From an uncultured Pseudobdellovibrionaceae bacterium (GTDB taxonomy: Bacteria; Bdellovibrionota; Bdellovibrionia; Bdellovibrionales; JAMPXM01): a stretch of 45,556 nucleotides of DNA. The notes beneath the pieces were generated by a model. It made no database searches, had not been told where the DNA came from, and saw nothing but the letters and a program-made list of their open reading frames with translations. Positions 14,023 to 25,370 of this stretch are shown piece by piece; position 1 is the stretch's first letter, and each line of letters opens with the position of its first letter. Both the position numbers and the translations under genes were made by a program. Location of the stretch: positions 1-45,556 of the forward strand of contig CAKQVW010000001.1 of NCBI GenBank assembly GCA_934277865.1, in the 5' to 3' direction.

Positions 14023-14039
14023 GGAACCTCGTTTCCTTA
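14020..14039. terminator. Short AT-rich hairpin spanning both convergent stop codons (nuoN TAA and the thioredoxin-like gene TAA)
   Basis: TAAGGAA (14020-14026), 6-nt loop, TTCCTTA (14033-14039). Only 7 bp with no U-tract, so it is weak as an intrinsic terminator. Confidence 0.2.
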
Positions 14040-14639
14040 CAACGCTGTGTGAAGGCGGAGCATCTTACGGATGACGTCCGCCTTGACCATACGAGTGCTT
14101 CGCAGCCTCTCAAAGCCGTCTTTCATCACAAGTAGAGTTCCAGGAGAGCTGACCAGAAACCGCTCGGCAACTGACGGGTAGGCTCCAATGTCGATCTGAA
14201 ACACGGCAATTCGTCCAAACTCTGGCTCACGCAGAATGCCTTGAAGCACTGGAGCTTGCCGCTGCCAAACTGCGTCTGAGGCATGCGAGAAAATTAACAG
14301 AATGGGATTCCCGGCCTCCGCCAGCTGTTTGTAGGAGGCCTCTTCGAAACGAGTTGCCACGTAGGGCGCGGGATTGATCACCTTCGGGGCGGCCGCAGCA
14401 TCTGCCGCAGTTGTCTGCGTGGGCGCGGTGGGCGCGGTGGCCGCGGTTGCCGGTGTGGTTGACGTTGCGGTTCCCGCTGCGGTTGGTGCGTCTGGTGGCT
14501 TCACGGCGGGTGCTTGAGGCGCTGCCGGCGCCTGCGTTTGTGCGGCGCCCGAAACGGAGATCAAGCAGACGGTCAACATCGCGGCGCAAAGCCCGATGAA
14601 ATTGGCAGAGATTGCGAAAGAAGTGGGAGATGATTTCAT
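14037..14639 (-). CDS. Exported or membrane-anchored thioredoxin-fold protein lacking the CxxC active site, with an Ala/Pro/Thr-rich linker
   Basis: Start chosen at MKSSPTSFAISANFIGLCAAMLTVCLISVSGAAQ (ATG 14639), which forms an ATGA overlap with the carbamoyltransferase stop. About 70 aa of A/P/T low complexity follow. The C-terminal domain has thioredoxin-like layout (ILLIFSHASDAVWQRQAP where W-C-G-P-C would sit, and SSPGTLLVMKDG as the cis-Pro strand) but no Cys there. Confidence 0.65.
   Translation of the reverse strand: MKSSPTSFAISANFIGLCAAMLTVCLISVSGAAQTQAPAAPQAPAVKPPDAPTAAGTATSTTPATAATAPTAPTQTTAADAAAAPKVINPAPYVATRFEEASYKQLAEAGNPILLIFSHASDAVWQRQAPVLQGILREPEFGRIAVFQIDIGAYPSVAERFLVSSPGTLLVMKDGFERLRSTRMVKADVIRKMLRLHTAL
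14419..14454. repeat. In-frame 9-nt tandem repeat (GTGGGCGCG x2, then the degenerate units GTGGCCGCG and GTTGCCGGT) inside the A/P/T linker coding region
   Basis: Read directly from the sequence. It encodes the TAPTAPT/ATAAT part of the linker on the minus strand. Confidence 0.7.
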
Positions 14640-16336
14640 AAGAGAGCTCCTTTTGGCTTTTCGACGACAAAAGATCCGATTGCGAGAAGGTCCATCTGTG
14701 TGCCGAGGAAACATTCGATGGCGTGTTCGGGCCGACAGACGACAGGTTCACCTTTTCGATTAAAAGACGTATTGATGATGACAGGAACACCCGTACGTCT
14801 TGCGCTGGCGCGAATCAGTTTTCGCAAGAGTGGATTGCTAGTTTCATCGCAAGTTTGCACTCGCGCTGTTCCGTCGACGTGAGTGATTGCAGGTACAGCA
14901 TCTTGTTTATCGGGATGTACCGTTGGCGCCAGCAGCATGTAAGGAGATGAAATCTTGAGATCAAAATACTCTGAGCAATGCTCTTGAAGAACGATCGGAG
15001 CGAAGGGGCGGAAAGCCTCGCGTTTTTTGATACGTGAGTTCAAAATATCTTTCATTCCGGCAAACGCGGCGTTGCCGATGATCGAACGATTTCCCAAAGC
15101 ACGAGGGCCAAACTCCATTCGCCCCTGAAACCATCCGATGGCTTTGTTGTCAGCAATCGCTTGTCCGACATATTCGCAGAGGTCGTCTTGACTGAGCTTT
15201 TTTCCTTGAATGGAATACTTCTTCAGACAGCTTTCAATTTCATCATCGGAAAATTCGGGTCCAAGATACGCGTGGTCCATTTTTCTTCGGTCTGATTTTT
15301 TTAAAAGACCATGGTAGACAAACAGCGCAGCACCAACAGCGCCACCAGCATCACCGGCTGCCGGTTGAACGAAGATATCCTCGAAGTCGGTGGTCTTTAA
15401 GATCTTGGCGTTTGCCACGCAATTGAGGGTGACCCCACCGGCTAGACACAGGTTCTTCAGGCCGGTTCGTTGCTGCAGCAATTTTGCATTTAGGAGAATC
15501 ACTTCTTCAACGACATCTTGGCAGGCGGCAGCTAGATCGTAGTGCTCTTGTGTCCATGAAGCGTTGCGGTCGCGAGGTGGACCGAATACGTCTACCCACT
15601 TTGAACTCCACATCTGATTACCCGCGCGGAACGCGAAATACTCCTGATTGAGCTCAAAACTTCCATCAGGCATGATCTTTACGACATCGCGGATCTGTTT
15701 GCGGTATCTTTCGGGGGACCCGTATCCCGCAAGCCCCATCAGCTTTCCTTCGCCACCGTGGGCATCAAAGCCTAAAAAAACAGTGACGGCGGTGTAGAGA
15801 AGGCCAAGAGAGTTTGGGTAGTGAATTTCATTGAAGACCTCAATTGAGCGTCCCCGTCCGACACCAACCGAAAAGGTTGCCCACTCACCAACTCCATCTG
15901 CGGTGATGATGGCTGCCTCTTCGAAGCCTGAGGGAAAGAATGAGCTGGCCGCATGGCTAAGGTGGTGTTTAACAAAGTAGACGGGGCCTTTGTAGCCGAG
16001 CTCCTCTTCAATGGTCAGTGGAAGCGACAGCCGTCCGGCTAGCCACTTCGGCATGGCCCGAGAAAATGCCGGCCAGGAAAATGGCCAGCTGCGCAGATGA
16101 TCTTGGATCACTCGTGCAAACTTCAGGAATGGCTTTTCAAAATAGGCGATGTGTTCAACCTGATTGATATCGATGCCAGCTCGTTCAAGACAAAACCGAA
16201 TCGAATGAATGGGAAAAGCGCTGGTGTTCTTTTCGCGACTAAATCGCTCTTCCTGGGCGGCGGCGATAATCTCACCGTCTTTTAGCAGGCAGGCGGACGA
16301 GTCGTGATAAAAGCAAGAAACACCTAAGATATACAA
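14636..16336 (-). CDS. Carbamoyltransferase, NodU/CmcH family
   Basis: 566-aa ORF with the characteristic N-terminus (M)YILGVSCFYHDSSACLLKDGEIIAAAQEERFSREK and downstream HHLSHAASSFF. The TTG start at 16336 matches the family N-terminus. Confidence 0.9.
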   Translation of the reverse strand: MYILGVSCFYHDSSACLLKDGEIIAAAQEERFSREKNTSAFPIHSIRFCLERAGIDINQVEHIAYFEKPFLKFARVIQDHLRSWPFSWPAFSRAMPKWLAGRLSLPLTIEEELGYKGPVYFVKHHLSHAASSFFPSGFEEAAIITADGVGEWATFSVGVGRGRSIEVFNEIHYPNSLGLLYTAVTVFLGFDAHGGEGKLMGLAGYGSPERYRKQIRDVVKIMPDGSFELNQEYFAFRAGNQMWSSKWVDVFGPPRDRNASWTQEHYDLAAACQDVVEEVILLNAKLLQQRTGLKNLCLAGGVTLNCVANAKILKTTDFEDIFVQPAAGDAGGAVGAALFVYHGLLKKSDRRKMDHAYLGPEFSDDEIESCLKKYSIQGKKLSQDDLCEYVGQAIADNKAIGWFQGRMEFGPRALGNRSIIGNAAFAGMKDILNSRIKKREAFRPFAPIVLQEHCSEYFDLKISSPYMLLAPTVHPDKQDAVPAITHVDGTARVQTCDETSNPLLRKLIRASARRTGVPVIINTSFNRKGEPVVCRPEHAIECFLGTQMDLLAIGSFVVEKPKGALL

Positions 16337-16337
16337 A

Positions 16338-16496
16338 TCACAGCCCCGCGTAGATGAACGTCATGATAATGCCGGGCCCGATTTTGAAAAAGAGAACCGC
16401 AAACAAGACTAAGGTAATCAACAAAGGAGCCATGAAGTACAGTTTGTGCTCTCGAATGAGATGTTTCATTTCTCGGAAAAGCAGTCCGATTTTCAT
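16338..16496 (-). CDS. Small single-TM protein, DUF5989-like (carbamoyltransferase-associated)
   Basis: Not in the supplied track (52 aa). I translated it by hand as MKIGLLFREMKHLIREHKLYFMAPLLITLVLFAVLFFKIGPGIIMTFIYAGL. Its TGA lies 1 nt before the carbamoyltransferase TTG. The basic N-terminus, one TM and C-terminal FIY motif match what I remember of DUF5989 proteins found next to these carbamoyltransferases. Confidence 0.6.
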   Translation of the reverse strand: MKIGLLFREMKHLIREHKLYFMAPLLITLVLFAVLFFKIGPGIIMTFIYAGL

Positions 16497-16511
16497 GTCG
16501 CAACTCCGGAT

Positions 16512-16802
16512 TCAGGATTGAAACTTCGCAGCTTCGAGATCTTCATTGTAGCATTCTGCCGCGATCCAGTTCGAGTCTTTTGATATCGTTTTTGCTCCAA
16601 GAGATTTCGAGAAGAAAATCCGGGCGACGACACTCGTCGGACCAAGAACAAAGAAGTAAATAAAGAAGAGCGCCAAGGTGCCAAGAATCTTCTGCAGAAC
16701 GACCGTGACGAGAAACCATTCGAGGCCTCTAAGAGCTCGAAAGATAGGTCTGGGCAGGATCTTCTGCAGTGTCGAATGAAATTTTCCGAGTCTCTTCTCC
16801 AT
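16512..16802 (-). CDS. Small membrane protein, SxtJ-like (short form)
   Basis: 96-aa ORF with hydrophobic segments (WFLVTVVLQKILGTLALFFIYFFVLGPTSVVARIFF) followed by a polar tail. It sits directly upstream of the DUF5989-like ORF and the carbamoyltransferase, which is the conserved trio order as I recall it. Family assignment is from memory only. Confidence 0.5.
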   Translation of the reverse strand: MEKRLGKFHSTLQKILPRPIFRALRGLEWFLVTVVLQKILGTLALFFIYFFVLGPTSVVARIFFSKSLGAKTISKDSNWIAAECYNEDLEAAKFQS

Positions 16803-16890
16803 GAGAACTTCCAGTTTAAGTTCCGCTTCGTAAAATTCAAAGACAAATACAGTCTGGACGAAGGGCTAAGTCGGTGCCACGATCTTAGTC

Positions 16891-18537
16891 GTGAAGAAGT
16901 TAATCGCCCTCGGTCTAGGTGCTGTCTTTACACTGGTGATCTTCGAGATCGCCTTACGCCTTATTGGGTTCCAAGAGCTCTATTCTCGCGATGCACTCGG
17001 ACCAGGCGTGAAGTCCGAAATGCCGGCTATCATCTTCGTAGGGAACTCTCATACGATGGGTACTGGTGCTGCGCCTGGGAAAAGCTTTCCCGACCAATTC
17101 CGCGAGATCTTGAATGTTCGGCATGGGAAGAGTCCGTTTGAAATTGTGAACCTTGGCCGAGGCAATGCGAATTCGAGTTTTGTTGCGGATCAAATGCCGA
17201 AATTTCTCAAAACCTATCGGCCGCAGATTGTCGTCCTAATGACAGGTGAAACAAACTTCTGGAATCACCTTGGCTATTCAGATTTTGTCCAAAAGACGTC
17301 TCCCGGTCTGGAATCCATTGGTCTCAAATTTTACAACATGGCTTACTCGCTTCGGACCTTTCGCTTCATTCAACTCTTCAGCGAGTTTGTGATGCGCCCG
17401 AGGCAGGATCATCGATTTTTCTCAGACTATACCGAAGAGGATCGCGCATGGATCTGGGTGGCCTCAATGAACAATGCAAACATGTTCGATTCGTCGAAGA
17501 TGACACCTGCTGAAGCCAAAGATGCCTATGAGACTATCCGGAGCTATTCCGATAAACACGGATCTTCGCTGAGTCTTTTGGAAAGTCAGATCGAACTTCT
17601 GCCCAGACTGTGGAAGGGACGCCCCGAGCTCGAGGATGAGTGGAAAAAACAAATACGCGAGTACGCGGCAACGTTTGGGGAAAAGGGTTACAGCTATTAT
17701 CTCGACAGGCTGACCAACACGTACCTTCGTGAGTCGACGGATAGGACGATTCGTGAAGTGGCAGCTTCCATGCTTGCGAGACGGCCAAAGGACTTTGCTG
17801 ATTTACGTGAGGTTGTTGAATACCACCAGGAGGCTCGGTCCTATCGCAGCCGATCTATTGACGAGCAGATAGGTTTTTATACAGCGGTGTCGCTTGCATA
17901 TCCGACCCACGCCACAGCAAGGATATTTTTATGTAGCAAGCTTCGTCAGGCGAAGAGACTGCGCGAGGCGTTCGAAGTTGCAAAAGCTGGTATGGAGCTC
18001 AACCCTTTGGCGAATCAGTCCAACTGGATGAGTGAAATTCTTGTTACAGAGGAAGAGGCTCGAAAAGATACTTCGCCGGAGATGGCCAGTCTTATTGAAG
18101 ACATCGATAAATATCGGAAAGAATTTGTGCAGAGGTTTCCGCGCCATCGAGGAAGGGTCGCGAAAATCAGCGATGAAGAAATATTGAATTGGATTGAGTT
18201 CGACCTCGAACGAATCCGAAAATTGGTAGAGGAAAGCGGCGCAAAGTTGATGCTTCAGACCTATCCGCCAGAGCGTTGGGGCTCAGAAAAGCTTGTCGAC
18301 GCTCTCTTGCGTCGGTTTGCTGCAAAATACCAACTCCCACTATCTGACACGTCTCGTGAATTGATCCATCTAGAGCCGGATCCTAAGAAACGAGATCGAT
18401 TCTTCACGAAGATGTATGGTGATTACGACGCCCACTTAGGAGAAGAGGGCTACGCCGTCGTCGCCCGACTACTTGAGCGGGACTTCGTAGCGCAGGGTTG
18501 GCTCACTGACGCTCAAGGCGTCAGAGAGTCGAAATAA
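16891..18537 (+). CDS. Membrane-anchored SGNH/GDSL-like hydrolase with a large helical (TPR-like) insertion
   Basis: 548-aa ORF with a GTG start and an N-terminal TM (KKLIALGLGAVFTLVIFEIAL). Block I-like IIFVGNSHTMGTG, block II-like NLGRGNANS, block III-like VVLMTGETNFWN and a C-terminal block V-like YGDYDAHLGEEGYAVVA. About 300 aa of helical sequence lie between blocks III and V. Confidence 0.6.
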   Translation: MKKLIALGLGAVFTLVIFEIALRLIGFQELYSRDALGPGVKSEMPAIIFVGNSHTMGTGAAPGKSFPDQFREILNVRHGKSPFEIVNLGRGNANSSFVADQMPKFLKTYRPQIVVLMTGETNFWNHLGYSDFVQKTSPGLESIGLKFYNMAYSLRTFRFIQLFSEFVMRPRQDHRFFSDYTEEDRAWIWVASMNNANMFDSSKMTPAEAKDAYETIRSYSDKHGSSLSLLESQIELLPRLWKGRPELEDEWKKQIREYAATFGEKGYSYYLDRLTNTYLRESTDRTIREVAASMLARRPKDFADLREVVEYHQEARSYRSRSIDEQIGFYTAVSLAYPTHATARIFLCSKLRQAKRLREAFEVAKAGMELNPLANQSNWMSEILVTEEEARKDTSPEMASLIEDIDKYRKEFVQRFPRHRGRVAKISDEEILNWIEFDLERIRKLVEESGAKLMLQTYPPERWGSEKLVDALLRRFAAKYQLPLSDTSRELIHLEPDPKKRDRFFTKMYGDYDAHLGEEGYAVVARLLERDFVAQGWLTDAQGVRESK

Positions 18538-19672
18538 TTTTTTTCAACCGATTCAGCGCCTCATCAATTTCGGTCGTCGTTGTCGTGGGTGAAAAGCTAA
18601 ATCGCAACTGATGAGCTAGGCGGTCGTCGCGTCTCATTGCCAAAAGAACGGCGCTTCGATCGGATTTCCCTGTGCCGCAGGCGGCGCCTGTTGAACATGC
18701 AACCAGTTCGTCTGCGAGCTGCCGATGTAAGACCTTGGACTCAAATTTCGGAAAAGTAAAACTGAGGACATGGCAAAGCGAGCTCTTTTCAACCTCTCCA
18801 TTAAACTGCACATCGTGAAACCGTTTCTTTAGCTCGTCGATAGTGTGTCTTTTGATTTGTGAAAGATCGGTGATCGTTTTCGAGGTCCAAGTCGTCGAGG
18901 CTTTGGCAAAGGCTGAAATCAACTCGACAGAGGTTGTGCCAGGTCGAAGTCCTTTTTCTTGTTTTCCCCCATATACCAACGGGGAAATTTCGATGCCTTT
19001 CCTGATGTAGAGGGCACCGACGCCCTTTGGTCCACGAACCTTGTGGCCGCTGAGGGTCATCAGATCTACTGGCAGCGTGTTGATCTGAAATTCCGTGTGA
19101 CAAAAGCTTTGGCAGGCGTCGGCGTGAAACCGCACGCCGCGCTCTCGGCAGATGGTACCGATTTTTTCTAAATCTTGGATGGTTCCGATTTCATTGTTCC
19201 CGTGAGAGACCGAAACCAAAACCGTATTGGCTTGAATCAAACTTTTCAGGTTCGAAAGGTCCACATAGCCAAGGGCGTCCACTTGCACTTCGTCCCAGGC
19301 GATCAGTCCATCTTCTTTCATTCGTGCGGCGGTATTTGCGACGCTCGAGTGTTCGGTCGAAGCCGTGATGATATGGGGTAGGCCGGCTTTGTCAGAGGTG
19401 GTTCGCTTCCAATCAGAAGCAGATCGTTGCAGCACCCAGTTGTTGGCCTCTGTCCCGCCCGAGCAGAAGATGATTTCAGAAGGCAAGCTCCCAAGTTTCG
19501 TAGCGATTGTTTCGCGGGCCACTTCGAGAAGTGCGGCAGCCTTTGTCCCCGGGCGATGCGCCGAGGACGAGTTTGCGACTCCGGATTCCAGGAGCTCGAA
19601 CAGATGGTTGCGGGCTTCAGGCGCCATGGAGGTGGTTGCGGCATGATCGAGATAGATTTCTGTCTGCTTCAT
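18521..19672 (-). CDS. Cysteine desulfurase (class V aminotransferase, NifS/IscS-like)
   Basis: Start chosen at MKQTEIYLDHAATT (ATG 19672, GGAGGA 9 nt upstream). PLP-lysine motif SGHKVRGPKGVGALYIRKG. FCSGGTEANN. Active-site loop STGAACGTG. The 3' end overlaps the convergent SGNH gene by 17 nt. Confidence 0.85.
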   Translation of the reverse strand: MKQTEIYLDHAATTSMAPEARNHLFELLESGVANSSSAHRPGTKAAALLEVARETIATKLGSLPSEIIFCSGGTEANNWVLQRSASDWKRTTSDKAGLPHIITASTEHSSVANTAARMKEDGLIAWDEVQVDALGYVDLSNLKSLIQANTVLVSVSHGNNEIGTIQDLEKIGTICRERGVRFHADACQSFCHTEFQINTLPVDLMTLSGHKVRGPKGVGALYIRKGIEISPLVYGGKQEKGLRPGTTSVELISAFAKASTTWTSKTITDLSQIKRHTIDELKKRFHDVQFNGEVEKSSLCHVLSFTFPKFESKVLHRQLADELVACSTGAACGTGKSDRSAVLLAMRRDDRLAHQLRFSFSPTTTTTEIDEALNRLKKIISTL

Positions 19673-19718
19673 AGAAGTCGATCCTCCTCGCTTGCTAAAA
19701 ATCAAGCAAGTCGAGACA

Positions 19719-20789
19719 ATGGGCGGCGAGATGTCGGATCACAAGTCAGTCGCAATTTGCGACCTCAAATCAGGCAAAGAGGCTTCTTCGAAGACGTTGT
19801 GGTCTGTCGAGGAGGCCCTCGCGGCGAGAGTTAACAGCTGGGAGGGTTGGTTCTGCGCAGCTGGCTCCGAAAATCTGCATATCTCAGCAGACGGCAATCT
19901 CTTCTCGGCCACATGTCGTGTCGGTGGCTATCTTGGGAACGTGTTCGAAGGGCAGATGTCGCTTCCAGAAAAATGGATCGTCTGCACGAAAAAGTGGTGT
20001 ATGTGCGGAGCCGACATGCAAATCCGCAAAGCGAAAAATGCCGAGCTGATTGCGTCGGCCCGGCAGCCGCTCCCGAAAGATGCCGACGTCGAGTCACAGG
20101 GCGATGTCGCGAAGCGAGCAGCCGCAGCCTTGGCGGCCAATCTTGTCGTACCGGCGCAACACGATACCCATTTGGCATTTCCGAAATCGATCACGTGGGA
20201 CCTTTCGCGCCGATGCAATTATTCCTGTTCCTACTGCCATCCTTCTGTCTCGAACCAGTACGAGAGCCACCACTCACAGCGGACCTTGTTAGAAGCTGTT
20301 GATCGATTAGAGCGTCGTTTCTGCAGAGGAGAAAAGGCCAAGTGGGTTTTCACGGGTGGTGAGCCGACGATCAATCCTGCCTTTATGGATGTCGTGGATC
20401 GTATCAACTCGTATGGGCACACGGTTCATGTTCAAAGTAACGGGAGCCGTGGACCTGCTTACTTTCGCGAGCTCATCGCCAAAGCCTGTGTCGGATTGAG
20501 TCTGCACCTGGAAGCTGATGCGGTGGACCGGTTTCTAGAAACCTGCGCTGCGATTGTCGACGAAAAGGAAACAAATGAATTGGCGTCGCGAATGTGGTTT
20601 GGCGTACGCATCATGGTAGGACCCGGTCGTGTTGAAGAGGCCATTGCGCTCAAACGTCGATTGCAGGAGATCTCAGGATTCTCGAAGTGGGGAAATATCA
20701 ACATGAGTCCGTTGTACAAGCGTCTTAAGCAAGACGAACTGATGGAATACTCAAAAGATGAGTATCAAGAACTCCTAAGGCACGTTTAG
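19719..20789 (+). CDS. Radical SAM enzyme A with an extra N-terminal Cys cluster
   Basis: CX3CX2C motif RRCNYSCSYCHP plus the GGEP-type SAM motif FTGGEPTINP. An N-terminal auxiliary-cluster-like pattern precedes the core: WFCAAG...ATCRVGGYLGNVF...CTKKWCMCG. The start is uncertain (TTG 19692, ATG 19719 or ATG 19731). Divergent from the desulfurase gene. Confidence 0.75.
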   Translation: MGGEMSDHKSVAICDLKSGKEASSKTLWSVEEALAARVNSWEGWFCAAGSENLHISADGNLFSATCRVGGYLGNVFEGQMSLPEKWIVCTKKWCMCGADMQIRKAKNAELIASARQPLPKDADVESQGDVAKRAAAALAANLVVPAQHDTHLAFPKSITWDLSRRCNYSCSYCHPSVSNQYESHHSQRTLLEAVDRLERRFCRGEKAKWVFTGGEPTINPAFMDVVDRINSYGHTVHVQSNGSRGPAYFRELIAKACVGLSLHLEADAVDRFLETCAAIVDEKETNELASRMWFGVRIMVGPGRVEEAIALKRRLQEISGFSKWGNINMSPLYKRLKQDELMEYSKDEYQELLRHV

Positions 20790-22150
20790 TAAACTTTCAG
20801 GAATTCGTTGAGTTCGGGAAAAATCTTTGCAAACGAGGTTCCGCGTTCTGCGTCCAAGCGTCGAATGTAGTCACGCGTTTGTGGAAGCCGGTCCGAATGG
20901 TCGGCCTCATTCATCAAATTGATGATGCCTTGAATTTTGTTCGATTTCTTTTTGCTACGCTCTTCGAACGCCAAAAGCTTTTCGGTAACGATCTTCTTCA
21001 GCTCGGCCGGATAGTTCTGAATGGAAAGGTACGGAGGGTAGTGCACAACCCCGGGGTGGAAATAGCCGTTGAAACCTTTTGTCACCTTTTTGAAGTTTTG
21101 GTCCTCGATCCATTGTGCGTAGTCCGCCAAATAGAACATGTTCATCATGTGAACGGAGCAGAGAAGCATGACCTTCACACTCTCGGGCGATTCTTCGTCG
21201 AGGCATTTGAGGTTCGTCGCGATTGACTCCCAGTTCGCCGGGAAGCGCATGTAGTTATTCTTCTCTCCCCAACAATCAAGACTGATAAAAACCTCGACTA
21301 GCTTAAACTCCTTCCAAAGCGGGAACAGAGTTTTATCTAGAAGCGTGCCGTTTGTATGATAGCGAATCTGAATGTTCTTGGCGGCGCCAGTGCGGACGCA
21401 GGCTTCAACAAGCTTTCGTGTTTCGTCGAGCAACATCGGCTCGCCGCCACCCACGATGATCTCTCGCATGTTGGGAAGCATGGATTCGATCGAGTCCCAA
21501 AACGCAGGGTCCTTGTACCATTCGAATCGGGACTGATTGATCTGGCTCTTGTGCGCCCATTCACTGCGGACTTCGCTGGTTTCTGCTGTTTCGGCGATGC
21601 GCTTCGCAAGTGCTGTCCAACGACTCGAATCTTGAGGACGGCACATAACACATTGGAGATTGCACGTGTTACCTAGGCGCAAGTCGATTGCGACGATGTC
21701 CTCATTCAGCGTTCCATCTTCTTTTGTGCGATGAACGCGATCGAGGACAAATTCACGTCCGAAACGCTCTTTCCAAACTCGGTTCTCAGTGATTCGGTGT
21801 GACCGATAGCCGTTTTTCTCTTCGGCGTAACAGTGTGCACATGCTGAAACCTTTTCGCCCTTCAGCATTTTGAGTCGGGCAGATTTCAGGTAGTCCGAGT
21901 TCCACGCCGATTGCAGACTTTGATCATTCAAGTTCAGCTTGTTTTCGTTCTTGGCGACACAGCAAAGAATGGCCGAGCCGTCCGTGTAGGTGGCAAGATG
22001 GGTGAATGGAAGAACGCAAAACGTAGGCGAAATTCGGCCAAACTCATATGGGTCGCTCAGCGATTCTTCTTTTTGCGAGCCCTCGAGGTTTCTAACCGGA
22101 TCAACGTTTTTGAAGGGGAATTCGTCTTTCTTGCCAAAGAAACTAGCCAT
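20786..22150 (-). CDS. Radical SAM enzyme B with an N-terminal twitch/SPASM-like Cys domain
   Basis: 454 aa. N-terminal FCVLPFTHLATYTDGSAILCC...AWNS...ACAHC (Cys45, 63, 64, 104, 107), then the radical SAM motif GNTCNLQCVMC (Cys163/167/170) and GGGEPML. Its stop codon shares TTAG with the stop of convergent enzyme A. Confidence 0.8.
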   Translation of the reverse strand: MASFFGKKDEFPFKNVDPVRNLEGSQKEESLSDPYEFGRISPTFCVLPFTHLATYTDGSAILCCVAKNENKLNLNDQSLQSAWNSDYLKSARLKMLKGEKVSACAHCYAEEKNGYRSHRITENRVWKERFGREFVLDRVHRTKEDGTLNEDIVAIDLRLGNTCNLQCVMCRPQDSSRWTALAKRIAETAETSEVRSEWAHKSQINQSRFEWYKDPAFWDSIESMLPNMREIIVGGGEPMLLDETRKLVEACVRTGAAKNIQIRYHTNGTLLDKTLFPLWKEFKLVEVFISLDCWGEKNNYMRFPANWESIATNLKCLDEESPESVKVMLLCSVHMMNMFYLADYAQWIEDQNFKKVTKGFNGYFHPGVVHYPPYLSIQNYPAELKKIVTEKLLAFEERSKKKSNKIQGIINLMNEADHSDRLPQTRDYIRRLDAERGTSFAKIFPELNEFLKVY

Positions 22151-23474
22151 GAACGGAATATCCTTCCGCGTGCAGCAAGCTGCTGAGGTCGGGAAGCGTT
22201 TGTTCCATACGTTGCTTGCGGTGCAGGTCGAGCATGCGTGTGTAGTGGATGAAGTCTTTCATCTTTGCTTCATCTTGTTCGGGATGTTCGGAAAGCAAAT
22301 TGATGCAACTATCGATGGAATTCTTAAGGAACCGCTGAGTCTCGTAGGTCTTCGAGCGCGTCTTGTAGGCCTCAAGGCGGCGCACGGCCTCTTGCTTGGC
22401 GGAGTTTGGCAAGATCTGCGCGTTGATGTAGTTCGGGTCTGTTGCATACAAGAAGTCGACGTTGATGTCGCGTCCGGACTCAAGCGCGACACTCTCGATG
22501 TAATCGAGCAGTCTTGTAATCGTTAGCACATTGTAAATTTGCAGAACTGGCGTCACGCCAATCTGAACGTTTTTTGGCAGCTTGACCAGTTTACGGAAAT
22601 TCTTGTCGATGGTTTCCCATCGACTGAGATACCGAATGTATTCGTTCTCGGGGCCATGGCCATCTATCGAGGCATTGATCAAAACAAACTGGAAGTGCGG
22701 CAGGTATTCTAAAAATTTGTCCTGCACATTGGTGCAGTTGATGTTGAACATCAGAAAGATGTTCTTCGAGTGCCCGGAATCGATACAGGCCTGCATGAAT
22801 TTGTAATTGCGTTCGATCAGAGTGGGCTCACCGCCCGTCAGATAAACCTTGCGCAAATTTGGAATCGAGCGAATGACCTCATCCCAAAATAAATCTGACT
22901 CATACCATTCTGGTGTTTCAGCTGGTTTTTTGCCGCCATTGAAGCGGTTCCAAAACTCGCGGTACTCTTCGTTTTGGTCGTAGAGCTGCACGGTCTCGCG
23001 ATAGATCTGGCTTGAATTATAGGGGTTGCAGGATCGGCACTTGAGATTGCAGAGGTTGCCCAGTCGCAAATCCAAATAGAGCGCCGGTTTATCAAGCTTG
23101 AAATCATTTTTACGAGAAGCTTCGACACGCTCTTCAATTTCGGTGCGCGCCTTGTTCATCCACTCTTCGTTGTGCATTTCGCGATAGGATGTTTTTCCAA
23201 TCGACTCTTGGAAATAACACAGCTCACACCCTGGAACTTGCTCGCCTTCGAGCATGCCTTTGCGAATGCTGCGCATGTGATTGGAGTTCCACGCCGCTTC
23301 CAATGGTTCGACGCCGGCGCGGTAACCGTGCCCATCGTCTTTCTTCACCATGCCGCCGCCTTTGGCGACGCAACAGAATCCAACTTTGCCGTTTGACTGA
23401 ACGACTTGTTCGATCCACGGGTAGACGCAGAACGTGTTGGCCGACAATTTGGAATCGCGATTGGATCCTGCCAT
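22143..23474 (-). CDS. Radical SAM enzyme C, paralog of B, with an N-terminal twitch/SPASM-like Cys domain
   Basis: 443 aa. FCVYPWIEQVVQSNGKVGFCC...AWNS...GCELC (Cys16, 34, 35, 83, 86), then GNLCNLKCRSC (Cys142/146/149) and TGGEPTL. An 8-nt overlap with the start of enzyme B suggests translational coupling. Confidence 0.8.
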   Translation of the reverse strand: MAGSNRDSKLSANTFCVYPWIEQVVQSNGKVGFCCVAKGGGMVKKDDGHGYRAGVEPLEAAWNSNHMRSIRKGMLEGEQVPGCELCYFQESIGKTSYREMHNEEWMNKARTEIEERVEASRKNDFKLDKPALYLDLRLGNLCNLKCRSCNPYNSSQIYRETVQLYDQNEEYREFWNRFNGGKKPAETPEWYESDLFWDEVIRSIPNLRKVYLTGGEPTLIERNYKFMQACIDSGHSKNIFLMFNINCTNVQDKFLEYLPHFQFVLINASIDGHGPENEYIRYLSRWETIDKNFRKLVKLPKNVQIGVTPVLQIYNVLTITRLLDYIESVALESGRDINVDFLYATDPNYINAQILPNSAKQEAVRRLEAYKTRSKTYETQRFLKNSIDSCINLLSEHPEQDEAKMKDFIHYTRMLDLHRKQRMEQTLPDLSSLLHAEGYSVHG

Positions 23475-23540: not shown

Positions 23541-24746
23541 CTATAGGTCATATTTGCGCAGCGCTTGGATTCCAGCCTTGAAGCCGATGTGGACGATTCG
23601 TCCGAGAATTTCCGCGTTCAAGCTGAAGTGATCCACGAAAAACATCTCATAGTCGTTCGGTGACGGATGGATGTAGATGTAGTCCACGCCCGGGCGATAG
23701 TTCACGCGCTTTGTCAGGATTTCGAGTAGCTTTTCGCGATGCTCGTCGGGGAGGCCTTGTTGGCGGAAATAGCCGTCGACCGCGCTCATGATGGCCGAAA
23801 TCTGCTGTTGGTGCTCGATGTGCTTTTCGATCTTTTGTTGAATCACCTGATAGAGCGCCTGGTTCATGATCATGGGTATGCCATAGTTGTGCAGCGAGCC
23901 CATGACTGGCGTGTAGTGGTAGGGCTGAACCGAGTAGCTGGCAATGACGAGATCCGCACCGGCATCGGCCGCAACGTGCGTTGATAGGGTTTCGCGAATC
24001 TCTCCGTCAAAAAAGTAGAGATCTTTGCCTTTTTGGTTCTTGATGCCATATGGCGCGAAGAAGGGTGGCAGAGCCGTACTGGCTGCGACCGCCTGAGAAA
24101 TCGACGCGAAGTTGGCGTACTTGATATTTCGAACCTTAAAAGTCTCAGGAAAGTTTCCGAAGACGACCTTGCGTGAGTGATTGAGCTGCGTGGCGATCAC
24201 GTAACTTTCGACTCCAAGCTGCGCAAAATCATTTTCGCTGAGAACATTCTGGCGCATGTAGCGCTCGATGTTTGCTGTCGTGAAGAGGCCGTTTAGTTTG
24301 AAGCCATTTTTGAGAAATGATTCGAGGCCACCGGTGACGAGGCTTTTTCTGCGAAGAAGACCTGGCAGCGTTCCTAAAAAATTCACGCCGTTCATGGCGA
24401 AGATATCGCGATAGGTGATGGGGCGAAGTTTGGTGAAGACTTTTTTGCGTCGAGAGAACTTATTCAGTTCGGTTTCGGCCCCGCGCTCGAAGGCATCGAT
24501 GATCGAATCCACGGAGTGACCGGCCGCCAGAAGTGACGTCACAAAAGATCCCGCGCTGGACCCCACGTAGGTTTTAAACGTCATCTTGTCTTCCGGGAAC
24601 CGCAGGCGCACATCCTCTTTCGAGCCACCGGCGAAGTTGAATCCCTTTTCACGTAACGCGAGACAGACGCCTAAATGAAACGCTGCAGCTTTGATTCCGC
24701 CGCCCGAAAGTACCAGGCCTAACTTCTTTTTCTCACTGAGCCGCAT
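23541..24746 (-). CDS. Patatin-like phospholipase
   Basis: Oxyanion motif LVLSGGGIKAAAFHLG, nucleophile elbow GSSAGS and catalytic Asp motif FFDGEI. Start placed at MRLSEKKKLG (24746); the track ORF extends to 24815. Confidence 0.85.
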   Translation of the reverse strand: MRLSEKKKLGLVLSGGGIKAAAFHLGVCLALREKGFNFAGGSKEDVRLRFPEDKMTFKTYVGSSAGSFVTSLLAAGHSVDSIIDAFERGAETELNKFSRRKKVFTKLRPITYRDIFAMNGVNFLGTLPGLLRRKSLVTGGLESFLKNGFKLNGLFTTANIERYMRQNVLSENDFAQLGVESYVIATQLNHSRKVVFGNFPETFKVRNIKYANFASISQAVAASTALPPFFAPYGIKNQKGKDLYFFDGEIRETLSTHVAADAGADLVIASYSVQPYHYTPVMGSLHNYGIPMIMNQALYQVIQQKIEKHIEHQQQISAIMSAVDGYFRQQGLPDEHREKLLEILTKRVNYRPGVDYIYIHPSPNDYEMFFVDHFSLNAEILGRIVHIGFKAGIQALRKYDL

Positions 24747-24896
24747 CCCACTGATTGTAAAGAGCTGCTCTGAGCAAGGACAGCCGAAAAATGCGGATCT
24801 GGCATTGTAATGCACTGTTCCGAGTTCGAAGAATCTCTTTTCATGTCAGTCATTTAAGTTGTGCAGAATTCCTAAGAGCCGCTAGTCTGGCCAGGA

Positions 24897-25370
24897 ATGG
24901 AACAGTGGCTTCTTCTGACAGACTACGCCAGCAAATACCGCGTGAGCGTTTCGACTCTCCGTCGACGAATCAAGGCGGGCTTGCAAGCGCACAAGTTTGA
25001 GGCGGGACGATATTATCTTCCCGACCATCTTGAGGCAGCCACGGCGGAGGCTCCCAGGCAGATGATGAAGGTCGCCGAGCCGGTTCCTTTGAAGGCAGCA
25101 ATTGAGGCCACTCCGGTCCCACCGGCGGTTACATTGGCAGCAGTCGAAGCGATCGCAAAAGCGGACGTCAAATTGTCGGATGAGCCGTTGATCACCACGA
25201 CGACCAAACTCCTCAACGAACTCAAGCAGGCCTACACGTTGATCCTTCATGAAAAAGAAGAGCAGATCATCTACTTAAAAGAAGAGATCGCGGATTTAAA
25301 AACGTTGGTCCGCGTGCTCGAATCGGAAAACGCGCGACTGCGCAGTCCATCTTCGGACTTCGGTAATTAG
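24897..25370 (+). CDS. Small DNA-binding protein: N-terminal excisionase/MerR-type helix-turn-helix plus C-terminal coiled coil
   Basis: 157 aa. LLTDYASKYRVSVSTLRRRIKAGL...GRYYL resembles HTH_17/excisionase-type HTH. The C-terminus LLNELKQAYTLILHEKEEQIIYLKEEIADLKTLVRVLESENARL is heptad-like. SD is poor. Confidence 0.55.
   Translation: MEQWLLLTDYASKYRVSVSTLRRRIKAGLQAHKFEAGRYYLPDHLEAATAEAPRQMMKVAEPVPLKAAIEATPVPPAVTLAAVEAIAKADVKLSDEPLITTTTKLLNELKQAYTLILHEKEEQIIYLKEEIADLKTLVRVLESENARLRSPSSDFGN

Follow-up and report, generated by a model that had tools for sequence, protein, structure and literature searches.

Much new enzyme chemistry comes from radical S-adenosylmethionine (SAM) enzymes with auxiliary iron-sulfur clusters. 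The SPASM and twitch domains that some of them carry usually lie C-terminal to the radical-SAM barrel, and are treated as a C-terminal add-on. The stretch of DNA analysed here, called the window, is 45,556 nucleotides (nt) long and comes from a member of the Bdellovibrionota (contig CAKQVW010000001.1, positions 1-45,556). It contains three adjacent genes for radical-SAM enzymes, labelled A, B and C, in which a conserved cysteine domain instead precedes the barrel. We propose that they form a two-cluster radical module which tailors a sugar or a glycoconjugate, and give this reading a probability of about 0.5.

Several described systems can be compared with these enzymes. The twitch enzymes BtrN, SpeY, HygY and BlsE, like A, B and C, consist of a radical-SAM core and one auxiliary four-Cys domain made of a beta-hairpin and a helix, and their sugar-gene neighbourhoods may be comparable to those that the present module has in some of its loci. 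Their twitch domain follows the barrel, however, while it precedes the barrel in A, B and C, and the identity is 14-24%. The enzymes anSME, SkfB, CteB, SuiB and PqqE belong to the same superfamily branch as A, B and C, and are the best core matches in the PDB. The SPASM peptide maturases have a C-terminal domain of seven to eight cysteines with two auxiliary clusters, often a recognition element (RRE) of ribosomally synthesised peptides that are modified after translation (RiPPs), and an adjacent precursor gene, whereas A, B and C each have a single N-terminal domain with five cysteines, and lack both an RRE and, within the locus, a precursor gene. LipA, MiaB and RimO resemble A, B and C in having auxiliary cysteines ahead of the radical-SAM motif, and near the present genes lies a gene for sulfur supply. 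Their domain folds and families are nevertheless unrelated (no NCBIfam matches); they insert sulfur, and nothing here points to that. Two families of the NCBIfam collection can be compared as well. B and C match the full-length model NF033640, and nothing sets them apart from this family, while the STM4011 family (NF038073) has a core and a Cys domain homologous to those of A, which in A occur in the opposite order. In full-text literature searches, no functional study of NF033640, of STM4011 or of a Bdellovibrio radical-SAM module was found, in agreement with a first-pass annotation of the window, which knew of no established function for NF033640.

Cysteine domains ahead of the barrel in two enzyme families

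The features on which the argument depends are the following, with cysteines numbered in each protein.

19719..20789, forward strand: enzyme A, a radical-SAM protein of 356 amino acids (aa), N-terminal Cys domain followed by the core
19800..20042, forward strand: N-terminal Cys-rich, twitch-like domain of A, residues ~28-108 (C46, C66, C89, C94, C96)
20214..20237, forward strand: radical-SAM motif of A, C166-X3-C170-X2-C173 (RRCNYSCSYC), invariant in an alignment of 27 sequences
20786..22150, reverse strand: enzyme B, N_Twi_rSAM family member, 454 aa
21641..21664, reverse strand: radical-SAM motif of B, C163-X3-C167-X2-C170 (CNLQCVMC), kept in 207 of 207 relatives
21806..22030, reverse strand: twitch/SPASM-type domain of B, residues ~41-115 (C45, C63, C64, C104, C107)
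22143..23474, reverse strand: enzyme C, N_Twi_rSAM family member, 443 aa, upstream of B
23028..23051, reverse strand: radical-SAM motif of C, C142-X3-C146-X2-C149 (CNLKCRSC)
23190..23438, reverse strand: twitch/SPASM-type domain of C, residues ~13-95 (C16, C34, C35, C83, C86); its cysteines align with those of B

At the coordinates which the first-pass annotation had given for A, B and C, the list of open reading frames (ORFs) has three intact frames. B and C are bona fide members of NF033640 (N_Twi_rSAM, "twitch domain-containing radical SAM protein"), the family that the annotation had named. B reaches 380.4 bits, with profile positions 1-398 (of 398) covered, and C 365.2 bits, the cutoff of this model being 170 bits. 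The cysteine pattern which B and C had been said to share is present in both as CX17C...CX2C (CX12GX4CC...CX2C), with a conserved Gly four residues ahead of the CC pair, and this spacing matches the first half of the SPASM motif. The Pfam SPASM model (PF13186, cutoff 21.5 bits) finds the same pattern at residues 45-108 of B with 28 bits and at residues 16-86 of C with 21.8 bits, and the Pfam Radical_SAM match begins after it (B, residue 159; C, residue 138). From the last N-terminal Cys to the first radical-SAM Cys the distance is 56 residues in both proteins, within the 55-60 first estimated. Each of the eight Cys positions is retained in 203-207 of the 207 unique full-length B/C relatives from the fetched loci.

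The identity between B and C is 29% over the full length, and the two, described at first pass as tandem paralogs, are therefore old ones. The C protein of the window is 41% identical to the C-type protein of an IMG/VR locus (L105), compared with its 29% to B. From this follows that the split between the B and C types is older than the spread of the pair. B- and C-type proteins also have, unlike BtrN, SpeY, HygY and BlsE, a helical insert of ~50 residues between the CX3CX2C loop and the GGEP strand, with conserved W211 and W218 (in B residues ~176-227, window 21470-21625, reverse strand), and a helical C-terminal region of ~110 residues with conserved P372, P381, Y428, D433 and R436. The insert and the C-terminal region may be substrate-binding elements.

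Enzyme A belongs to a family separate from that of B and C. This family is related to the STM4011 proteins, and the Cys domain, once C-terminal, has become N-terminal in A. The Pfam Radical_SAM model covers residues 162-276 of A. The match of A to NF033640 is 37.5 bits and confined to the core, so that A is not a member, and the different N-terminal Cys pattern that the first-pass annotation had seen in A is real. The model of the STM4011-family radical-SAM proteins, NF038073, has 278 positions and a cutoff of 200 bits. A reaches 34.3 bits and is not a member of this family either, but its core aligns to model positions 11-131, and each of the 22 members of the A-domain family that were tested matches positions 200-253, in the C-terminal part of the model, with a best E of 1e-6. 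A is a permuted variant outside every Pfam and NCBIfam model.

The five N-terminal cysteines of A are invariant in an alignment of 27 homologs with 36-84% identity, as are W44, G59, G70, W86, G97, D99 and K104, and each of the five is retained in 53-54 of the 54 unique A-type proteins with the N-terminal domain. Conservation of the N-terminal cysteines among homologs, a check proposed at first pass, is accordingly found in both families. There are ~67 full-length homologs of A, beyond which coverage falls sharply.

As an example of the permutation, consider the comparison by BLASTP of A with a viral protein (L135:8225-9199). There are two high-scoring segment pairs, and their order is swapped: residues 158-317 of A align to residues 18-166 of the viral protein (E 3e-16), and residues 38-111 of A align to residues 247-319 (E 3e-7). 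Both orders recur in the fetched loci, all of which were searched with a local hidden Markov model of the A domain. Counting A itself, 70 proteins (63 bacterial, 6 viral and A) have the domain ahead of the core, with CX3CX2C at ~150-175; in 72 (31 bacterial, 41 viral) it comes behind the core, with CX3CX2C at ~25-50 and the domain at ~240-320. Proteins of both orders share the motif W-x-C...DG...C...GG-GN...C-x4-C-x-C-x2-D...K. In a profile census of 1.84 billion representative proteins the domain occurs in 1179, 408 of them at E<=1e-10. Among the best 150 of the 1179, 45 proteins of 280-460 aa have it at the N-terminus and 40 of this size at the C-terminus, and in 12 proteins longer than 460 aa it is internal. 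Since the same domain sits C-terminally in related enzymes, A is a genuine domain-order swap.

The C-terminal placement that defines twitch and SPASM enzymes therefore holds for the usual-order relatives of A and fails for A, B and C. Two unrelated families have a domain of this kind at the N-terminus. The first-pass statement that an N-terminal position is unusual stands for a domain of SPASM/twitch type. It does not stand for N-terminal auxiliary clusters as such, which LipA, MiaB and RimO have. Because both domain orders coexist in the family of A, this family is a natural experiment on the placement of an auxiliary cluster with respect to the active site.

The swap in A could have come about by tandem duplication and fusion, followed by trimming. 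Genes of usual order (a) and swapped order (A) are adjacent, as a>A>, in L037-L042, L045, L048 and L052, and the proteins of ~650 aa that were examined have the layout core-domain-X-domain. These pairs and proteins may be intermediates or relics of the duplication from which the swap arose. In nine such proteins (P0257, P0259, P0293, P0301, P0306, P0309, P0311, P0317 and P0374) the core and its Cys domain are followed by ~250 aa without a radical-SAM motif and then by a second Cys domain.

AlphaFold gave confident single-body models for A (predicted local distance difference test, pLDDT, 91.3; predicted template-modelling score, pTM, 0.88) and for B (pLDDT 86.7, pTM 0.83). Both models resemble twitch domains in having a beta-hairpin between the first and second Cys and a helix that starts at CX2C. 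Over its full length, the B model matches (TM 0.66-0.73) radical-SAM proteins of uncultured tailed phages. A PDB profile search with the A domain returned chance-level matches to RCC1 hairpins alone.

From motif conservation and spacing it is most likely that each of the N-terminal Cys domains holds an auxiliary [4Fe-4S] cluster. When the cysteines instead bind zinc or form disulfides, the domain would be a structural module without an auxiliary iron-sulfur cluster. That the A domain has no significant SPASM match would fit such a module, and yet it is very improbable. The domains of B and C pass the Pfam SPASM cutoff, their CX17C...CX2C spacing is one which we take to parallel the twitch ligands of BtrN, and the B-family profile aligns, if weakly (E 0.0075), to the twitch region of BtrN. 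In the usual-order relatives of A, moreover, the domain occupies the exact place of a twitch or SPASM domain.

A conserved unit in Bdellovibrionota and on IMG/VR contigs

The distribution of the enzymes was followed by two scans. One, over one genome per species, used the alignment of A, and the other, over IMG/VR, used the alignment of B and C. Together they reveal a conserved unit, in which an overlapping B comes after C and an A-type enzyme is added, and which the present Bdellovibrionota lineage inherits at a fixed place in the chromosome.

In the window, the stop of C and the start of B share an 8-nt overlap, ATGGCTAG, which suggests that C and B are translationally coupled. The convergent genes A and B overlap by 4 nt. 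The gene order is nuo - thioredoxin-like - [carbamoyltransferase - GDSL] - NifS - A - B - C - patatin - HTH (helix-turn-helix) - lon, and it is syntenic in L001, L009, L010, L011 and L012. The locus is thus flanked by nuo genes on one side and by the HTH-like gene and lon on the other, it is syntenic between nuo and lon in five genomes, and the GC content is uniform over 14-30 kb (0.49-0.54). The idea of a foreign island was set aside on these two grounds.

Nearly all matches of the scan with A were to Bdellovibrionota metagenome-assembled genomes (MAGs), often with multiple loci in one genome. B/C/A triads occur in at least 12 Bdellovibrionota loci and in three gene orders; loci other than those syntenic with the window have the order B>C>A> or the order A>C>B>, or else arrays in which the two families together contribute up to nine radical-SAM genes (L046, L063). 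The families are not strictly confined to Bdellovibrionota, since L077 is an Omnitrophota MAG and L064 a Thermoplasmata archaeon. Arrays of five to nine radical-SAM genes from these two families were seen in L046 (3175-16438), L063 and L077.

In IMG/VR, 479 contigs encode full-length relatives of B and C with 36-50% identity, and the gene order was examined in 80 of these 479 loci. A C-type gene followed by an overlapping B-type gene (C>B>) was found in ~65 of the 80, and an a- or A-type gene at most 1.5 kb downstream of C>B> in 38 of the 80. The association extends to natural fusions: P0315 (798 aa) joins an N_Twi-type body to an a-type enzyme, and P0313 (556 aa) has an A-type Cys domain ahead of an N_Twi-type body. 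P0313 would thus bear two different N-terminal Cys domains. The enzymes that should be co-expressed are indicated by the fusions and by the fixed C>B pairing. Relative to the annotation of NF033640, the ancient split into B and C types, the fixed C>B pairing and the abundance on IMG/VR contigs are new.

The module is common, with 479 IMG/VR contigs, several arrays per Bdellovibrionota genome and 1179 representative clusters with an A-type domain. Identification of its substrate would therefore annotate thousands of genes, and could uncover a modification of the surface or of a metabolite that matters for bacterial predation and for virus-host interactions.

Substrate and chemistry

Genes that recur beside the module were counted after dereplication to 115 locus groups. 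The partners are listed with the groups or loci in which they occur.

8 bacterial groups: a 568-aa family 2 glycosyltransferase (GT2) directly upstream of B>C>A>
L169: a full operon X554-GT2-GT2-B-C-A-MFS (major facilitator superfamily)
10 locus groups, bacterial and viral: carbamoyltransferase
6 locus groups: UDP-Glc/GDP-Man dehydrogenase
8 locus groups: ABC (ATP-binding cassette) ATPase
many viral loci, and L030, L072 and L086: Asp/Arg-hydroxylase-type oxygenases (2-oxoglutarate hydroxylases)
L135: GT7-LamG proteins beside the module
L086: DegT, YdjC, PhyH and GT2
the window and L088: GDSL/SGNH proteins

Arrangements similar to the operon of L169 are present in L005, L015-L017 and L043. In L169 (4358-15084), as in L005, L015-L017 and L043, the order is an EpmA/GenX-like gene, a 554-aa protein, two GT2 genes, B, C, A and MFS, and the best PDB match of the EpmA/GenX-like lysyl-tRNA-synthetase paralog of L169 is 3A5Z. 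In 36-38 of the IMG/VR loci that were fetched (for example L105 7227-8252 and L135 7248-8225), an unannotated protein of ~330 aa comes after C>B>, and its family is fused to an Asp/Arg-hydroxylase domain in a Bdellovibrionota protein of 1068 aa (L086 4086-7301).

This gene context, together with the precedent of BtrN, SpeY, HygY and BlsE, is suggestive of a sugar or glycoconjugate as the substrate. The sugar-acting twitch enzymes BlsE (E 5.7e-5), BtrN and SpeY are among the weak structure and sequence matches of the present enzymes.

The proposed mechanism is as follows. Each of A, B and C combines a [4Fe-4S]/SAM site at CX3CX2C with a twitch-type (half-SPASM) Cys domain ahead of the barrel. 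Each would cleave SAM reductively, and the 5'-deoxyadenosyl radical would then abstract a hydrogen atom from a C-H bond. As in the twitch enzymes BtrN, SpeY and HygY, the auxiliary cluster would accept or relay an electron, or hold the substrate. A, B and C would act in succession on one substrate, by oxidation, epimerisation or C-C/C-O rearrangement, and this substrate would most probably be a sugar or glycoconjugate made by the glycosyltransferases that are found with the module elsewhere. The conserved fifth Cys, which in B and C forms the CC pair, might, speculatively, serve as hydrogen donor, as in radical-SAM epimerases.

A number of observations weigh against this proposal. The window locus has no glycosyltransferase, and many loci, such as L087 and L088, carry the enzymes without recognisable sugar genes. 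The Asp/Arg-hydroxylase-type partners would fit a protein or a lipid substrate equally well. Searches of the conserved viral neighbours against PHROG and against Pfam and NCBIfam left most of them without annotation. When the models of A and B were compared with the PDB by Foldseek, radical-SAM cores alone were matched, with TM 0.3-0.45, and no solved structure with either architecture was found. For A, the Pfam models placed no domain on the N-terminus of the 27 homologs apart from SPASM in one of the 27, at E 0.1, and an hhalign comparison of the A domain with the B domain gave no significant match (E 0.29), with the DG hairpin alone aligned. No direct homology of the two domains is therefore claimed, and "twitch-like" as used for A refers to the likeness in motif and secondary structure and to weak SPASM-family matches. 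As to the viruses, the best relatives of B in GenBank isolated phages, which occur in jumbo phages, are only ~23% identical. Because of this, and because the neighbours are without PHROG matches, "viral" is here IMG/VR's own label for the contigs.

The conserved viral neighbours of 315, 279, 115, 454 and 210 aa have no Pfam match at E 0.01, and in PHROG the neighbours have no matches apart from one marginal case, the 279-aa protein (phrog_1903, E 0.0007). PDB sequence searches with the 554-aa protein (X554), the ~330-aa protein (X330) and the 315-aa viral family returned nothing informative.

Most SPASM and twitch enzymes act on a peptide or protein, and the present enzymes could do the same if their substrate is encoded elsewhere or is a larger protein. 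The closest core profile and fold matches include SkfB, CteB, anSME, SuiB and EpeE, genes of Asp/Arg beta-hydroxylase type are frequent in the viral loci, and a gene like that of EpmA, which resembles the lysyltransferase of elongation factor P (EF-P), is located, in L169 and L005, upstream of the paralogous operon. These maturase matches are, however, confined to the generic core, with the low TM values given above, and the annotated partners of the module are mainly sugar enzymes. In the window locus there is no precursor-peptide gene, and the enzymes have no RRE or other extra Pfam domain; a precursor encoded at a distance is possible. A small ORF has no space among genes that overlap or abut, and a frame of leader-peptide size does not fit; the absence of a nearby RiPP precursor, which the first-pass annotation had reported, is in this sense confirmed within the locus. 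Nor does a conserved small ORF adjoin the triads: the sole recurrent small family, of 115 aa in 21 locus groups, is unannotated and non-adjacent. A peptide or protein substrate is therefore considered unlikely.

Two further alternatives start from genes next to A and C in the window.

18521..19705, reverse strand: class-V aminotransferase, NifS-IscS-like cysteine desulfurase (Pfam Aminotran_5, 1.8e-58), divergent from A
23541..24815, reverse strand: patatin-like phospholipase (Pfam Patatin), on the same strand as C and 66 bp upstream of it

In the first, the enzymes insert sulfur, and the N-terminal cluster is a sacrificial or relay source of sulfur that the desulfurase refills. Sulfur-inserting radical-SAM enzymes are the classic cases of an N-terminal auxiliary cluster, and the NifS/IscS-like gene is divergent from A and kept in five orthologous loci. 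It adjoins the module only in L001/L002 and L009-L012, however, and in none of the other ~160 loci, bacterial or viral. The desulfurase was thus rejected as a general partner of the module, and the first-pass description of it as "dedicated" is not supported, as it is adjacent in the five syntenic Bdellovibrionota loci (L001, L009-L012) and in no other. It also diverges much faster than its neighbours, with ~206-249 bits in L001, L011 and L012 compared with 707 in L009, and it may simply be a housekeeping gene or a local iron-sulfur supply gene. B and C, finally, have no similarity to the MiaB, LipA and BioB families in NCBIfam, so that sulfur insertion is improbable. The NifS-like protein itself is below every NCBIfam equivalog cutoff (303 bits, compared with 530 for NifS), and has a pyridoxal-phosphate lysine motif (SGHK) and a candidate active-site Cys (STGAACGTG).

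In the second, the module tailors membrane lipids or lipid A, in connection with the patatin-like phospholipase. The position of this gene close upstream of C, which is kept in orthologous loci, and a weak match to the model of the tetraether lipid synthase Tes speak for such a function, and the Asp_Arg_Hydrox family includes the lipid A hydroxylase LpxO. The match to Tes is 17-24 bits at a cutoff of 450, however, and the patatin gene adjoins C only in L001, L009, L011 and L012, and never other triads or viral cassettes. Lipid tailoring is thus as improbable as sulfur insertion. In this lineage only, the patatin gene possibly belongs to one operon with C and B.

A wider form of the sugar proposal is also conceivable. 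The C-B(-A) trio would then be the catalytic core of a widespread radical pathway, common to predatory Bdellovibrionota and large uncultured viruses, that builds or remodels an uncommon glycoconjugate of the surface, which might serve in contact with prey or host or as camouflage. The auxiliary domains would have moved to the front twice independently, and the chemistry would be new rather than a dehydrogenation of the BtrN type. With all its parts taken together, this wider form is doubtful.

Neighbouring genes of the window

The remaining genes of the locus are listed in order of position.

14037-14714, reverse strand: thioredoxin-like ORF, with a 79-bp overlap with the 3' end of the carbamoyltransferase ORF
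14636-16336, reverse strand: carbamoyltransferase of NodU/CmcH type (Pfam)
16512-16802, reverse strand: small hydrophobic membrane ORF of 96 aa
16891-18537, forward strand: GDSL/SGNH-like protein (Pfam)
24897-25370, forward strand: HTH-like gene, 157 aa, with an HTH-like N-terminus and a coiled-coil-like C-terminus

The 157-aa HTH-like protein matched no Pfam or NCBIfam family. The gene may be a local regulator, because it is kept beside the patatin gene in all orthologous loci (L001, L009, L011, L012). The cassette of carbamoyltransferase, membrane ORF and GDSL gene (14636..18537), between the thioredoxin-like gene and the desulfurase, is complete in L009; L010 has the GDSL gene alone, and L001, L011 and L012 have neither the GDSL gene nor the carbamoyltransferase. 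Because it is so patchy across orthologous loci, the cassette looks like an insertion.

Two starts in the window deserve a remark. For A, the alternatives to the start at 19719 are a TTG at 19692 and an ATG at 19731, and since homologs begin at the latter (MSDHKS), it may be the true start. The real start of the thioredoxin-like ORF is probably a downstream Met (MKSSPTSF...), from which the protein would have a signal-peptide-like N-terminus and a linker rich in Ala, Pro and Thr.

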